Part shown: positions 42,710 through 49,994 of the stretch, in pieces
How the letters are laid out: every line of letters begins with the position of its first letter
Numbering within the stretch: position 1 is the stretch's first letter
DNA from: Bdellovibrionales bacterium
GTDB taxonomy: Bacteria > Bdellovibrionota > Bdellovibrionia > Bdellovibrionales > UBA1609
Length of the DNA stretch: 64,000 nucleotides
Reading direction: 5' to 3'
Assembly (NCBI GenBank): GCA_027459485.1
Contig: DAIDIG010000002.1
Location: forward strand, 159,597 to 223,596
The notes under the pieces: generated by a model
Database searches by the model: none
What the model saw: only the letters and a program-made list of their open reading frames with translations
Told to the model about the DNA's origin: nothing
Translations under genes and position numbers: made by a program

Positions 42710-43018
42710 CTATTTTATCATTTCTTGAAGCTCGCCGGATTGATACATCTCCATCATAATATCGCTGCCTCCCACGAGCTCTTTGTTGACGTAGAGTTGT
42801 GGTATCGTCGGCCAGTTGCCGAATTCTTTAATGCCTTGGCGGACCGTATCGTCAGCCAATACGTCGACGCCTTGAAATTGAACTCCCAGCTCTTGCAAAA
42901 TCGCGACGGCTCGAGCCGAAAAACCGCATTGCGGGAATGACGGCGTACCTTTCATGAACAGCACCACGCGGTTCGAATTCAGAATCGATTCGATTTTCGT
43001 CTTTGTATTTGCGTCCAT
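42710..43018 (-). CDS. grxD: Monothiol glutaredoxin Grx4
   Basis: FMKGTP..PQCGFS, WPTIPQLY, GGSDI. Confidence 0.97.
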   Translation of the reverse strand: MDANTKTKIESILNSNRVVLFMKGTPSFPQCGFSARAVAILQELGVQFQGVDVLADDTVRQGIKEFGNWPTIPQLYVNKELVGGSDIMMEMYQSGELQEMIK

Positions 43019-43045
43019 TTTTTAGATCTCCTTCTATAAAATTAA

Positions 43046-43288
43046 TTAGGCGCCCGGCGCCGGTTTTGCGATCGTTTTGATTTGCAAAGCGTGAACTTCA
43101 CCCGTTTTCAGTTCGGCCGAGAACAGATCCATCACCGACTTGTGCTGTTCGATTCGCGATTTGCCGGCAAACGTACGCGAGGCTACTCGCACGTCAAAAT
43201 GATTATTCGTGCCGGTCGTGTCGAGAACTGCGACTTCGCAATCCGCCCACGCGTCTTTGATCCGCTTTTCAATCTGCTCAGCTGTCAT
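43046..43288 (-). CDS. bolA: BolA/IbaG family protein
   Basis: NHF.V.V.S..F.GKSRI.QH..V, VHALQIKT; adjacent to grxD. Confidence 0.93.
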   Translation of the reverse strand: MTAEQIEKRIKDAWADCEVAVLDTTGTNNHFDVRVASRTFAGKSRIEQHKSVMDLFSAELKTGEVHALQIKTIAKPAPGA

Positions 43289-43355
43289 AGCGCCCCCATA
43301 TAGCACAAGTTGAGGCTAATGACAAAACGTGTTATATCTCCCGATGGAGTAACTA

Positions 43356-43664
43356 TTGGCTGAAGAAAAGAGTGACCCTTATTTCGAAACTGCGGACGAA
43401 ACGCATATCCGGCGCGAAAAGGCACGGGCGCGCGAACTTCGTGAGTCGCAATGGTGGCGAGGTCAACTGGGGCAAGGTGTCTGCTACTATTGCCGTGAGA
43501 AATTCGAGAAATCCGATCTCACCATGGATCACGTCGTTCCGATCGTACGCGGCGGGCGCTCCACAAAATCGAACGTCGTCGTGGCGTGCAAAGAGTGCAA
43601 CTCACAAAAAAAATATTGGACGCCGGCCGAACTGGCGTTTCAAAGATTGCAAAAATCCACTTAG
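43356..43664 (+). CDS. Small HNH endonuclease
   Basis: CYYC...TMDHVVP..RGG....N.V.AC..CN..K; TTG start after GGAG. Confidence 0.9.
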   Translation: MAEEKSDPYFETADETHIRREKARARELRESQWWRGQLGQGVCYYCREKFEKSDLTMDHVVPIVRGGRSTKSNVVVACKECNSQKKYWTPAELAFQRLQKST

Positions 43665-43682: not shown

Positions 43683-45455
43683 ATGGCATCAAAAATAACT
43701 CAGCATAGCACCGCGGAGTATTTTGCAAAAAATCTCCAGCAGGTGGGTTTTTCATCGCCGGTCAAGGCGGTGTTAACGACATTGAAAGAATCCGTGGACA
43801 ACTCTCTCGACGCTTGCGAAGAAGCCGGTATATTGCCCGAACTTGAGGTAGTCGTGCGTCGCTTGGGCAACGGATCGGCGAAAAACACCGAGCTTGTCGA
43901 AGTGATCGTCGACGATAACGGCCCGGGTATCGACGCCGACGATTTGGCTTCGGTATTCGGCGAATACTTGTCCTCGTCGAAATTCGGCCGCGGTCGCTGC
44001 TCGCGCGGGCAACAAGGCATCGGGATCTCCGCCGCCACGACTTGGGCGCAACTCACCAACGCCGCCGGCGTAAAAGTCACGAGTAAAACGAAGGCCATGC
44101 GCAAAGCCGTGAAGGCGCAAATCGACGTCGACATCAAAGCCAATAAAGGCCTCGTGAAAAATAAAGAAACCATCGATTGGGATCGCCCCCACGGCACGCG
44201 CGTGCAGTTTTGCATCGACGGCCGAGTTCAGCTCAATGGTGACGGTGGAATACTGACCTATCTCGAAGGCACAACGTTGGTGAATCCACACCTGACTCTG
44301 AAATACAAACTCCTCGATAATGAGGCAGTCGAAGTGAAACGTGTCAGCGACGCGGTGCCTGAGGTGCCGCCGCCAACGCTTCCGCACCCTCATACGATGA
44401 AACTCGGCGAGTTCATGACCCACGCGCACCTTTTCGGCAAAGTGACACTCGACAATTTTTTGCGCAAAGGGTTTTCGAGAGTCGCCGATGAAGCGATCAA
44501 AGGATTTGTTCAACACGGTATGCCCAAGTCGTTTCTGCATAAGGCTCTGACGACTGTCTCTGAGGCCGAGTTCAAAACGGCATTTCAAGCGATTCAATCA
44601 ACCGAATTGCAAAATCCGTCGACGCGATCGGTGATGATCGTCGGCGAAGAAGCGCTATCGAAAAGCATTCAGCGGCTCGGCGAAGTGGATTTCTTTTCCG
44701 TCGTGGCTCGTAAGCCGCGCATCTGCGATTTTAAGCCGGTGGCTGTCGAGGTGGCGATCGCGCGCTTTATTAAGAAGCCGAATTTGAGCGACGAAGCTGA
44801 ACAAATTCAGCTTTTGCGTTTTGCCAATCGCGTGCCGCTTCAATTCGATAAAGCCGCCTGCGCCATCACGCAAGCGGTGGAGTCGGTGAATTGGCGCGCC
44901 TATGGCCTGCAGCAGTCGAAAGATTCTTTGCCGCTCGGCCCTTATGTCTTCGCGATCAGTGTCGTATCACCCTTCATTAAGTTTAAAAATGCCTCGAAAG
45001 AAACAATTGACGCGAGCGATGAGCTGGTCGAAGAAATTCGTCGGGCGCTGATGCAAGCCGGGCAAAAGCTCTCGCGTCATATCAAGCGCGAAGTGCGGGC
45101 CGCCGATCTCGAGAGAAAACTGCAGCACATCGAGAAATTCGGGCCGATTTTGGTTGAAGCCCTTGGTAAAATCGTGAATGCCCCGAAAGCGCGCGTGAAG
45201 CGGGCCGAAGATGGTTTGGCGAAACTATTGGGCCGCGACAGCCGCGATGCCGAAAAGGAACTCGCCGAAGCTGAAACGCAACTTGAAAAAGTGAAGGCCA
45301 AGCAAAAAGGCACATCTTCAGATGACGGCGAAGGTGGCGGCGAAGAAGTTGCGATCGAAGCAGCGTCCGCTTCAGATGAGGCGCCGATTGGGGCAGATGA
45401 GCGGCGCGGTCAACTCGAGATGGAATTTAAAGTCGAAGAACCCGAAGAGGTTTAA
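43683..45455 (+). CDS. top6B: DNA topoisomerase VI subunit B
   Basis: AEYF.KN, KE.VDNSLDA, DNGPGI, SSKF, SRGQQGIGISAA (GHKL), RFANRVPL, SKE. Confidence 0.95.
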   Translation: MASKITQHSTAEYFAKNLQQVGFSSPVKAVLTTLKESVDNSLDACEEAGILPELEVVVRRLGNGSAKNTELVEVIVDDNGPGIDADDLASVFGEYLSSSKFGRGRCSRGQQGIGISAATTWAQLTNAAGVKVTSKTKAMRKAVKAQIDVDIKANKGLVKNKETIDWDRPHGTRVQFCIDGRVQLNGDGGILTYLEGTTLVNPHLTLKYKLLDNEAVEVKRVSDAVPEVPPPTLPHPHTMKLGEFMTHAHLFGKVTLDNFLRKGFSRVADEAIKGFVQHGMPKSFLHKALTTVSEAEFKTAFQAIQSTELQNPSTRSVMIVGEEALSKSIQRLGEVDFFSVVARKPRICDFKPVAVEVAIARFIKKPNLSDEAEQIQLLRFANRVPLQFDKAACAITQAVESVNWRAYGLQQSKDSLPLGPYVFAISVVSPFIKFKNASKETIDASDELVEEIRRALMQAGQKLSRHIKREVRAADLERKLQHIEKFGPILVEALGKIVNAPKARVKRAEDGLAKLLGRDSRDAEKELAEAETQLEKVKAKQKGTSSDDGEGGGEEVAIEAASASDEAPIGADERRGQLEMEFKVEEPEEV

Positions 45456-45469
45456 TTAGAGGTGTTACT

Positions 45470-46633
45470 GTGGCGAATCCGGCAACGTTAAGAAAATCCG
45501 ACAAAGACATCCCGAAAATCGCGCAGAAGATTTGTGACGATATGCTAAAAGATTTGGAGCACGCCAAGCGCCCGATTCTCGAAGCGGTCAAGTGCTCTCT
45601 CGATAATAGCTTGTACGATTCGAAAGTCGGTTATCTCACGCCCGGCAAAAAAATGGTGGCGACCGAGCTCAACGTTTCATCGGTTCAGAAAATGGCGCGC
45701 ACGGTATTTTTTCTCGATATTTTGCTCAACAACATTAAAACGGGCGCTGTGAACACGAAACGTGAATTGTATTATATGGCGAAAGGTTTCGTGAAATCCG
45801 ACCCGCATTATAAGCCGCTTGATTTCGACGACCAGAACGAGAGCGACGCCATCATTCAATTTATTTGCGATATGCTCACAGTCTATCGCGAAGAGATGAA
45901 CTGCTTTGCCAACGATCGCGGCGGTCAGACCTACTCGAAGCAATTGGTGGTAACCGAGCATCTGCCCGATGGTACTCGCGCCGAAGTCGACCTCGGCTCT
46001 CTCGGAACGACTCCGTTTCAACCAAAAAATAAACCGCAAGTGTTTAAGCTAAAGTCAAAGGGCAAAATTGATTTTTGTCTCGTCATCGAGTCGGAAGGCA
46101 CGGCGAACACATTGGTATCGAACGGTTTTACCAAGCGCCACAAATGCATCATGGTCGGCGCGCAAGGTGTGCCGAGTAATGGCGTACGGGGATGGGTGCG
46201 AACCATTCAAGATCAACTCAAAATCCCGTGCTACTTTTATGGTGACCTCGACGCGTACACGTTGCAAAATATCTATAGAACGTTGAAGGCGGGTTCGGCT
46301 GCGTCACTCATTCGAAACAGCGAATTTAGCGCGCCTGAGGTGAAATTTTTGGGCGTGCTCCCGGAAGACGTCAAAAAATACGATCTGCATTGTTACCCCG
46401 TTTCAGAGAAGAACCCGGCCGATGCACGGTCACTCAAAAAAGCGCGCGACGTTTTGCAAAACGACCCGTTTTTTCAAGACAAGCGAAATAAAAAGCTCGC
46501 CGACATTCTCAATTGGCTTTTGAAAAACAAAGTGCGCTGCGAGCAGCAATCGATTTTTTCGGTGAATCCGAAAGACCCGACAATGCCCGAGAAGATTATT
46601 GTTGAGAAGATCAAGCACGGGTCGTTTGTATAA
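45470..46633 (+). CDS. top6A: DNA topoisomerase VI subunit A (Spo11-like)
   Basis: TKRELYY (catalytic Tyr), F.DQNESD, VIE, G.P, DLD (Toprim), EQQS. Confidence 0.93.
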   Translation: MANPATLRKSDKDIPKIAQKICDDMLKDLEHAKRPILEAVKCSLDNSLYDSKVGYLTPGKKMVATELNVSSVQKMARTVFFLDILLNNIKTGAVNTKRELYYMAKGFVKSDPHYKPLDFDDQNESDAIIQFICDMLTVYREEMNCFANDRGGQTYSKQLVVTEHLPDGTRAEVDLGSLGTTPFQPKNKPQVFKLKSKGKIDFCLVIESEGTANTLVSNGFTKRHKCIMVGAQGVPSNGVRGWVRTIQDQLKIPCYFYGDLDAYTLQNIYRTLKAGSAASLIRNSEFSAPEVKFLGVLPEDVKKYDLHCYPVSEKNPADARSLKKARDVLQNDPFFQDKRNKKLADILNWLLKNKVRCEQQSIFSVNPKDPTMPEKIIVEKIKHGSFV

Positions 46634-47308: not shown

Positions 47309-47459
47309 GACCCCTCCCGTTTTAAGCTAGTTTACCTACCCGTTGGGCCCAATCCAACTGGGCTTCGGGCCGGAGTTATAATCCAACGCGATGGGGTTTG
47401 CTGAAACCAGGTCTAGGTTCTAACATGGTACCCGTCAATATATAGACGGGAGCAGAATC

Positions 47460-49994
47460 ATGGCAAAACGGAAAAGTGCGAAAAAGTCCGCAAAGAATGC
47501 AAAAAAATCGGCGAAGAAAAAAGTGGCAACGAAGAAATCGGCGATGAAAAGGTCAATGGCGCGAAAGCCGGCGATTAAAAAGTCGACCATGAAGTCGACT
47601 AAGAAAAAAGTGACAAAGGCGAAGCGCAAACCAGCACGAAAAGCTGGGGCGAGCGCCGTGCCCATGATGGCTCAATCATCAAACCCCAAATTGGGCGGCG
47701 GCAAAATCGACACCACGCCCGAGTTGGTTCGTGCCGCCTATGCAAAAATGCGGGAGCGTCTCTCGATCGTTCGCAATCGCCTCGATCGCCCGATGACGTT
47801 GGCCGAAAAAATCGTGTTTGGGCATTTGGTCGAGCCGAAAGCTCAAGATCTCGCGCGCGGTAAAAGTTTTTTGCAACTGCAACCGGATCGCGTGGCAATG
47901 CAAGACGCGACGGCGCAAATGGCGCTGCTCCAATTCATGCTCGCTGGCCGAGACGAGGCGGCCGTGCCGAGCACGGTCCATTGCGACCACTTGATTCGCG
48001 CGTATGAAGGCATGGAGCCGGATATGAAAACGGCCATGCAAGAAAACAAAGAAGTATTCGATTTTCTGGCGACCGTCGCCTCTCGTTATAATATTGGGTT
48101 TTGGAAGCCCGGGGCCGGTATTATTCACCAGGTGATTTTAGAAAACTACGCTTTCCCGGGTGGGCTTATGATCGGCACCGATTCGCACACACCGAACGCG
48201 GGTGGTCTCGGTATGGCGGCGTGTGGAGTAGGCGGCGCCGATGCGTCGGATGTGATGGCCGGACTCCCGTGGGAGGTCAAAAACCCGAATATCGTCGGTG
48301 TTCACCTCACCGGCAAATTGCAAGGTTGGACCTCCGCCAAGGACGTGATTTTAAAATTGTGCGGAATTTTAACCGTCAAAGGCGGTACGAACAAAATCAT
48401 CGAATATTTCGGCGAAGGCTGCGAATCGATCAGCTGCACCGGCAAAGGCACGATTACGAATATGGGGGCAGAACTCGGCGCCACGTGTTCGATCTTCCCC
48501 TACGATACGCGGATGGCGACGTATCTCAAAGCCACTCGTCGAGGGGATCTCGCGGCGCTGGCCGACAAAAATCGCGATCTCGTCACGGCTGACAAAGAAG
48601 TTTGGGCCGACCCGCATCGTTTTTATGACGAAGTTGTCGAGATCGATCTGTCAACGCTTGAACCGCAAATCGTCGGCCCTCACTCGCCCGACGCCGCTCA
48701 CGCGATTTCGGAGATGAAAACGGCGGCCGAGAAGAACAAATGGCCGACGCGATTGTCGGCGGCGCTGATCGGTTCGTGCACGAATTCATCTTACGAGGAT
48801 ATCGGCCGCGCCACACACGTTGCACAACAAGCGCTCGACGCTGGCCTCAAAATGCCGCAGCAATTTATGGTGTCGCCCGGCTCGTCGCAGATAAAAAAGA
48901 CGATCGAGCGCGACGGTCAGATGGAAGTCTTGAGCGAAGTCGGTGCGAACGTTCTTGCCAACGCCTGCGGGCCATGCATCGGGCAATGGCAACGTAAAGA
49001 CATCCGAAAAGGCGAAGTGAATACAATCGTGAACAGTTTCAATCGTAATTTTCGCGGGCGAAACGACGATAATCCAGAAACGTTGTCGTTCATCGCGTCG
49101 CCAGAGACGACAATGGCGCTCGGGATAGCCGGTCGGCTCGATTTTAATCCGGCGAAGGATACGCTGACGACTCCCTCAGGTAAAACTGTGAAACTACAAC
49201 CGCCATCGGCGCCCGAATTGCCGAAGAACGGATTTGTCACCGACCCGACGGGATATCAAGCCCCGCAAGGTTCGGGCGTGACCGTCAAAGTGAGCCCGTC
49301 GTCGAACCGTCTGCAACTACTCGAGCCTTTCGCGAAGTGGGATGGCGATGACGTGCGCGAAGCGCTGGTATTGTGCAAAGCCAAAGGCAAATGCACAACC
49401 GATCACATAAGCCCCGCCGGCAAATGGCTTACCTACCGCGGCCACCTCGATAACATTTCAAACAATTTGCTTTTGGGCGCGACAAACGCGTTCGGCGGCA
49501 CGAATTCGTCTCAAATGATCGGCAAAGGCAAAAATGTTTTGACCGGCGAAAGCAGCATTGAATTCGCGAAAATAGCGCGCGATTACAAAGCAAAAAAGCA
49601 GAACTGGGTAATTATCGGCGACGATAATTACGGCGAGGGTTCGAGTCGCGAGCACGCGGCCATGACGCCGCGTTTTCTGGGAGGTCGTGCCGTGATAGCG
49701 AAGAGTTTCGCGCGAATACACGAGACGAACCTCAAAAAGCAGGGGATGCTGGCGCTCACGTTTGCCAACCCCGCTGATTACGACAAAATTCGCGAGGACG
49801 ATCGCGTGACGATCGAAGGCCTCAAGAATTTTGCACCGGGGCAACAGCTGACGCTCGTCATACACCATGTCGACGGCGGCAATGAGCGAGTGAAACTCAA
49901 TCACACGTTCAACGCCGAGCAGATCAAATGGTTCAAAGCGGGTTCGGCACTGAATCTTTTGCGTGCTGAGCGGGCCTCCGGTCGTGGCCACTAA
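47460..49994 (+). CDS. acn: Aconitate hydratase, mitochondrial type, with N-terminal histone-H1-like extension
   Basis: [61 protein letters not shown]. Confidence 0.96.

Follow-up and report, generated by a model that had tools for sequence, protein, structure and literature searches.

A lysine-rich tail on a mitochondrial-type aconitase of Bdellovibrionales, one instance of a module attached to many proteins

The window analysed here is a stretch of 64,000 nt from a Bdellovibrionales bacterium (contig DAIDIG010000002.1 of GCA_027459485.1). It carries an aconitase ORF of 844 aa at 47460-49994 on the forward strand, in which three parts were distinguished. The polycationic N-terminal tail, rich in Lys, Ala, Ser, and Thr, comprises residues 1-62 (47460-47645, + strand; net charge +29) and was recognized from its composition. 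A Gly/Ser/Ala linker follows as residues 63-82 (47646-47705, +), and the core, defined by profile and structure matches, comprises residues 83-844 (47706-49994, +). The tail contains 24 Lys, 5 Arg, 12 Ala, 7 Ser, 2 Pro (3.2% of the 62 residues), and no Asp or Glu; this recount agrees with the 24 Lys, 5 Arg, and zero acidic residues given in an earlier note on this DNA. The first acidic residue of the ORF appears after residue 80. In the AlphaFold model, residues 1-81 are unstructured (pLDDT about 30) and the remainder of the enzyme is folded. Since the disorder reaches residue 81 or so, the tail and the linker together cover 47460-47705. A filter for K-rich frames was passed by 17 of the 36,415 stop-to-stop frames of the genome, among which the tailed aconitase had the second-highest score, indicating that the tail is no common chance feature.

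The core is complete, and the earlier description of the tail as in frame with a mitochondrial-type aconitase was right. The protein scored 1079.5 bits with TIGR01340 (aconitase_mito; cut-off, 825.35) over model positions 1-745 of 745, and mitochondrial aconitase structures matched the core with the same fold, 59-60% identity, and an E-value of 6e-299 (1aco). The residues C440, C503, C506, D176-H177, H223, D241, H243, and S728 were invariant in 44 sequences and aligned with 1aco; we take the three cysteines to be those of the [4Fe-4S] cluster and the others to belong to the catalytic motifs. Compared with known mitochondrial-type aconitases (PDB 1aco and 5acn; yeast Aco1), the fold, the three cluster cysteines, and the active-site motifs are alike, whereas the window enzyme adds a polycationic N-terminal extension of about 80 residues, and its alignment with the solved structures begins at residue 94. 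The named close homologs were Bdellovibrionales, and the tailed aconitase was the sole PF00330 match in the genome (99.8% complete). By its sequence, the gene product is a true member of the mitochondrial-type aconitases. The tailed cores were on average more basic than the tail-less ones (+4.6 vs -4.3; n = 25 and 111, kin not being independent), also in three sister comparisons, and habitat or whole-proteome bias may account for this shift. Intramolecular charge compensation of the tail was not supported, as the tailed cores were no more acidic.

As to the start of translation, a Shine-Dalgarno-like GGGAG (47448-47452, +) lies 7 nt 5' of ATG 47460, so that the tail indeed has an SD and an ATG of its own, as had been noted. 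The anti-SD duplex at this ATG (-6.6 kcal/mol) was the best of the 14 in-frame start codons examined. Possible secondary starts in the linker are GTG 47658, ATG 47664, and ATG 47667; the duplex was -4.7 kcal/mol at GTG 47658 and ATG 47664, and -4.7 or less for the 47658-47667 starts together. The RNA around ATG 47460 was open (local MFE -2.1 vs about -11), and the 47658-47667 starts lay in folded RNA. A promoter scan returned one site vs 0.7 expected, which was located on the opposite strand. The tail might still be missing from all or most of the enzyme made, the true start being at 47658-47667, where the earlier note had pointed to an internal ATGATG near 47664. This possibility draws on the public gene call of the window gene (P0001, 775 aa), which starts at 47667 and omits the tail, on the similarity of MMAQ to the ancestral MAQIET start, and on an internal GGGG that gives the -4.7 kcal/mol duplex.

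A survey of the N-termini of the orthologs, proposed in the earlier note as a check, came out in favour of the fusion. Among six congeneric genomes, a similar tail with its own ATG was found in all five that gave an aconitase match; the sixth, 76% complete, was without one. The N-tail was present in 0 of 24 loci of other genera, most of which begin at M-x(1-3)-I-E/D-T-T. In a protein search, 20 of the 120 homologs among the matches listed were tailed (33-109 residues) and all 20 begin with MAK; the search favoured tailed sequences, so the fraction is no prevalence. A Met occurs within the last 25 aa in no more than 3 of 23 tails. In G003 and G004, there is no start codon from the tail ATG to the inside of the conserved core, and in G001 there is none past position -33; G005 and G002 offer only TTG or GTG codons near the junction, with a weak or absent SD. 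Since the tail occurs in all matched congeners and the junction holds few Met or start codons, the tail-aconitase fusion is, on comparative sequence evidence, real. Given also the weaker SD and the structured RNA at the internal starts, translation of the enzyme without its tail is highly improbable, although a minor short isoform in the window genome alone is possible. Gene callers can omit such tails (P0001 and P0058 were called short), and lysine tails are therefore under-annotated.

Beyond the genus, the aconitase tail is patchy. In 55 genomes, 20 of them picked from the matches listed and mostly for long reading frames, an N-tail was found in 6, a C-tail in 2, and none in 47. The C-terminal tails belong to two genomes of family f3 and consist of (KKKAT)n in G038 and (KKKAPS)n in G381. 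In genus g52, which is probably Bdellovibrio, the tail was missing from both aconitase and the BCP peroxiredoxin in 5 of 5 genomes; the model genus with a compact nucleoid would thus manage without it. Among the matches listed, 80 GTDB loci, mainly of other phyla and 71 of them with a closed 3' end, and 80 metagenome loci, 52 of them with a closed 3' end, showed neither an N- nor a C-tail. When residues 1-147 were compared with cluster representatives, 0 of 150 among the matches listed had a K-rich prefix (all at 68-451 aa too short for a complete aconitase), which is uninformative because full-length enzymes collapse into clusters. The tail alone, searched in longer proteins, gave 0 of 1,681 candidates at E <= 0.001, likewise uninformative with a low-complexity query. 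No clear free-standing K-rich donor ORF was found beside tail-less aconitases in 59 loci; the nine matches were three tailed aconitases, one Top6B end (L078), two frames at or overlapping Top6B ends, and three short unassigned frames. Separately, an aconitase frame of Acidimicrobiia (L117) runs on for 232 residues, by fusion or a lost stop; we take this extension to resemble a nitroreductase domain.

The history of the tail was followed on a 56-row tree of the cores, built without four rows that duplicated other genes and without the majority of the tail-less P rows, which may be short gene calls. Nineteen tailed rows formed one group (SH-aLRT 93), and L016, P0004/P0053, and P0043 fell outside it, amounting to at least four gain or loss changes. 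P0004/P0053 were sister to the tail-less enzyme of G305 (support 100). A single origin of the N-tail was rejected, as monophyly of the 13 N-tailed rows had a p-AU of 4.7e-7 (34 rows, LG+G4, a quick tree, with the rows picked after the first trees were known and hence not blind). The tailed aconitase L016 (from G002) grouped with enzymes from other genera that have no tail (support 99), a placement for which core replacement, loss in the sisters, and a binning artefact (6% contamination) are candidate explanations.

Similar tails were found on other proteins of the lineage. In the window genome, similar basic ends occur on the BCP peroxiredoxin, a SWIB protein, L21, a NadD-RsfS fusion, and a 150-residue basic-acidic protein; judged by eye, none of the 10 matches from 2,132 long frames was another TCA enzyme (C1:602664 and C2:109915 were not assigned). 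The BCP of the window genome has a K/A/S-rich N-tail (L038:3741-4346; G000:C1:238740). An N-tail was found on BCP at 14 of 35 loci, among them those of 5 genomes with a tail-less aconitase, and in 106 of 120 homologs of a tailed query among the matches listed; its tails hold 37% K, 20% A, and 0.7% D+E. The Top6B C-terminus was K-rich in 15 of 30 loci (L236-L265). A scan of 10 genomes for the pattern MAK[KR]K gave 54 starts, many of them short or spurious frames, and 14 of the 54 frames were scanned against Pfam. Among the carriers were SWIB proteins (tails of about 25-85 residues), GroES, PyrG, a sigma-70-family factor, and basic-acidic proteins; GroES (Cpn10) of G038 begins with about 150 K-rich residues (L231:781-1515). 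The tails of BCP, Top6B, SWIB, GroES, and PyrG share the composition of the aconitase tail and often the MAK start; they sit on other carriers, and their distributions are unlike that of the aconitase tail. These sequence comparisons show that the aconitase tail represents a module which recurs on many proteins of Bdellovibrionales, and its presence on BCP, GroES, PyrG, and L21 means that it does not single out aconitase.

Three further observations were made. Free-standing K/A micro-ORFs of 22 and 44 residues (L192:1119-1184, preceded by a GGAGG SD, and L207:1384-1515) are possible stand-alone versions of the tail. A family of 145-230 aa combines a basic K/A N-terminal half with a strongly acidic C-terminal half ending in YF (L039:3507-3956; L200, L204, L219, L232); it matched no Pfam family above cut-off, and its members are candidate H1-like or chaperone-like proteins. 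At L040:3430-4506 (G000:C10), a NadD-like cytidylyltransferase and RsfS form one ORF of 359 aa with a short basic N-terminus.

To see what is conserved, 23 aconitase tails (1,572 residues), chosen for K+R richness and not for low acid content, were compared. They contained 38.9% K, 16.9% A, 9.7% S, 8.8% T, 6.0% V, and 3.3% R. Acidic residues numbered 4 of the 1,572, compared with 11.2% in the core; there was a single Glu against 52 Arg, and F, W, and Y together made up 5. Tail lengths ranged from 33 to 109 while the cores were 71-88% identical, and the tails compared with the window's tail scored barely above their own shuffles (z -0.8 to 3.9). As the composition is kept while order and length vary, we infer that selection acts on charge, composition, and disorder, and not on length, residue order, or terminus.

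The same data were examined for the opposite reading, in which the tail is a close to neutral extension that the protein tolerates: coding repeats rich in A and prone to slippage would grow at protein termini of the lineage and be kept as little harmful, perhaps aiding translation initiation. The patchy distribution with repeated gain or loss, the great length variation, the lack of conserved order, the numerous unrelated carriers, and the absence of the tail from most relatives are all consistent with it. However, Lys codons are one transition from Glu codons, yet a single Glu is found against all those Arg residues; the 19-row clade retains the tail throughout; the C-terminal tails cannot aid initiation; and slower diffusion is the expected cost of a tail of net +30. 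Neutral retention appears unlikely.

The tail was compared with known polycationic tails. The chlamydial proteins Hc1/Hc2 and the C-terminal tail of histone H1 share with the aconitase tail a K/A-rich, acid-free, disordered polycation. However, the aconitase tail falls under the family cut-off, is without the H1 globular domain, and is not free-standing: HC2 (PF07382) matched at 20 bits (E 8e-4) and 24.7 bits against a Pfam cut-off of 40, and residues 1-80 alone matched zero families in Pfam and NCBIfam. The earlier likening to H1 and Hc1 thus stands for composition and fails as a profile match, and, judged by sequence, the tail is not a member of the H1/Hc families. Streptomyces TopA and mycobacterial HupB likewise carry a K/A-rich disordered tail on a folded protein. 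In TopA, lysine repeats lend stability to the complex with DNA, and 175 of the 554 Streptomyces proteins that carry lysine repeats are annotated as DNA-binding (PMC5714199); nucleoid association of HupB requires its tail (PMC5676037). These are DNA-binding carriers with C-terminal tails, whereas the aconitase is a metabolic enzyme with an N-terminal tail in which Pro is scarce, in a genome of 50.6% GC. Pseudomonas AlgP/PhaF, whose H1-like tail is thought to tether a granule to the nucleoid (PMC9239181), have regular C-terminal KPAA repeats on granule proteins, in contrast to the irregular N-terminal K/A/S/T tail of the aconitase, which has no tandem KPAA. A lysine-rich tail appended to a folded protein is of a known kind; in titles and abstract openings of the mostly open-access literature, no description of a lysine-tailed bacterial aconitase or of such tails on Bdellovibrionales enzymes was found.

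As the best explanation, at a probability of about 40%, we propose that the tail is a sequence-independent nucleic-acid tether with DNA as its leading partner. By sequence, orthologs, and model, the gene encodes a single product, a normal TCA-cycle aconitase behind about 80 disordered residues of net charge about +30. The tail would bind polyanions electrostatically and without sequence specificity, which would lower the mobility of the aconitase and bias its location, with chromosomal DNA as the putative leading partner. Catalysis would probably go on as before, and the binding could be tuned by acylation of the lysines; acetylation modulates lysine-rich tails elsewhere (PMC7398561). DNA-acting proteins of the relatives with similar tails, namely Top6B, SWIB proteins, and the sigma-70-family factor, are consistent with this proposal, as is the action on DNA of the tails of TopA, HupB, and AlgP/PhaF. 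The nucleoid of Bdellovibrio bacteriovorus partly excludes free fluorescent proteins (PMC8445325) and is histone-rich (PMC10627809); the exclusion is known from that species, and the window organism belongs to another, uncultured lineage. A histone-like match is present in the window genome (G000:C8:72296-72469; 41% identity, E 2e-8, to a 65-aa protein of G003), where the histone label of the 65-aa protein is a resemblance to the Bd0055 sequence, with zero Pfam match. Leptospira aconitase, which may or may not be tailed, was depleted from the nucleoid fraction (-5.62; PMC10627809). BCP, GroES, PyrG, L21, and NadD-RsfS as carriers without a DNA role, and the 47 of 55 genomes without an aconitase tail, including all five of genus g52, count against DNA.

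The main rival is that the same polycationic tether has ribosomal or messenger RNA as its main partner, so that aconitase, BCP, and GroES would be parked on ribosomes or in an RNA-rich zone. In E. coli, the binding target of +25 GFP is the ribosome and not DNA, and positively charged proteins there bind mainly ribosomes (PMC5726854), which means that a polycation does not have DNA as its partner by default. L21 and the NadD-RsfS fusion are among the carriers in the window genome, and other aconitases (IRP1) bind RNA. However, the GFP result concerns a folded supercharged surface and not flexible K/A repeats, and IRP1, which is only about 25% identical, binds RNA via folded domains. RNA as the main partner is thus possible but somewhat unlikely, and the carrier list, with DNA-acting, ribosome-linked, and metabolic proteins, leaves the partner unsettled. 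Binding to another polyanion, either polyphosphate granules or anionic membrane lipids, was also considered. AlgP, with its similar tail, localises to polyP granules (PMC9239181). On the other side, the tail is poor in aromatics (the 5 F, W, and Y residues above) and in large hydrophobics, which disfavours membrane insertion, and such a partner seems distinctly improbable. For the DNA tether, the earlier idea of a nucleoid-tethered enzyme is therefore upheld as regards the real and conserved fusion, the H1-like composition, and the plausibility of nucleic-acid binding; it is weakened by the generic nature of the tail and by DNA not being the default partner.

The neighbourhood of the gene was examined as well. 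The operon top6B-top6A (43683-46633, +) lies one gene from the aconitase in the window annotation, as the earlier note had it, and throughout the order it is kept as a neighbour whether or not the aconitase is tailed. Among 30 genomes of several families, the distance from the aconitase to top6B was at most 10 kb in 20 and larger in 3, and in 7 the two lay on different contigs; top6BA directly adjoins the aconitase in G028, G031, and G040. By tail status, the aconitases within 10 kb were 4 of 6 with an N-tail, the single one with a C-tail, and 15 of 23 without a tail. Because the linkage is common to tail-less enzymes, it has no bearing on the tail, and Topo VI adjacency was rejected as support for a tail role. 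Two further observations concern this region. The Top6B of the window (43683-45455) ends acidic, with a net charge of -13; a K-rich Top6B tail was found in 0 of 6 genomes with an N-tailed aconitase vs 10 of 16 with a tail-less one, which is a lead only, since the six N-tailed genomes all belong to one genus and both tails occur together in G038. Just 5' of top6B, 4 kb from the aconitase, lie a BolA and glutaredoxin pair and an HNH protein (42710-43306, -; 43356-43664, +); the BolA-glutaredoxin pair is presumably Fe-S related.

In its strong form, the earlier idea is that the Fe-S enzyme would be a chromatin component coupling iron, redox, or TCA state to chromosome compaction, in the manner of yeast Aco1, a nucleoid protein needed for mtDNA maintenance (PMC6124551). 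The precedent, together with the mitochondrial type of the window enzyme, the proximity to top6B, and the basic shift of the tailed cores, speaks for it. To our knowledge, the nucleoid role of Aco1 requires no such tail. Moreover, the tail is disordered, cysteine-free, and placed at either end, so that no feature couples it to the state of the cluster; it is generic and sits on numerous carriers; the Topo VI linkage is shared by tail-less enzymes; and the core charge shift may follow habitat or whole-proteome bias. No feature supporting the link between iron, redox, or TCA state and compaction that the earlier note had drawn was found, and such a sensor is very improbable.

A bolder version of the DNA tether, which we consider quite unlikely, is that the lysine tail acts as a mobile, general address tag admitting selected housekeeping enzymes to a dense, protein-excluding nucleoid, which would be a charge-coded, nucleus-like compartment. 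Aconitase, BCP peroxiredoxin, GroES, CTP synthase, and Topo VI would be its cargo, with aconitase a recurrent one whose tag would have been gained separately at either end, and perhaps an oxidant-labile Fe-S enzyme would be placed beside DNA together with a peroxidase.

If the tail is merely tolerated, the protein is an ordinary aconitase with a lineage quirk. If it brings the aconitase to the nucleoid, nature would here be using a simple charge tag to position a metabolic enzyme in a bacterium, and protein entry into the protein-excluding Bdellovibrio nucleoid would become testable, for which the tailed and tail-less orthologs, with their closely similar cores, are ready-made pairs.
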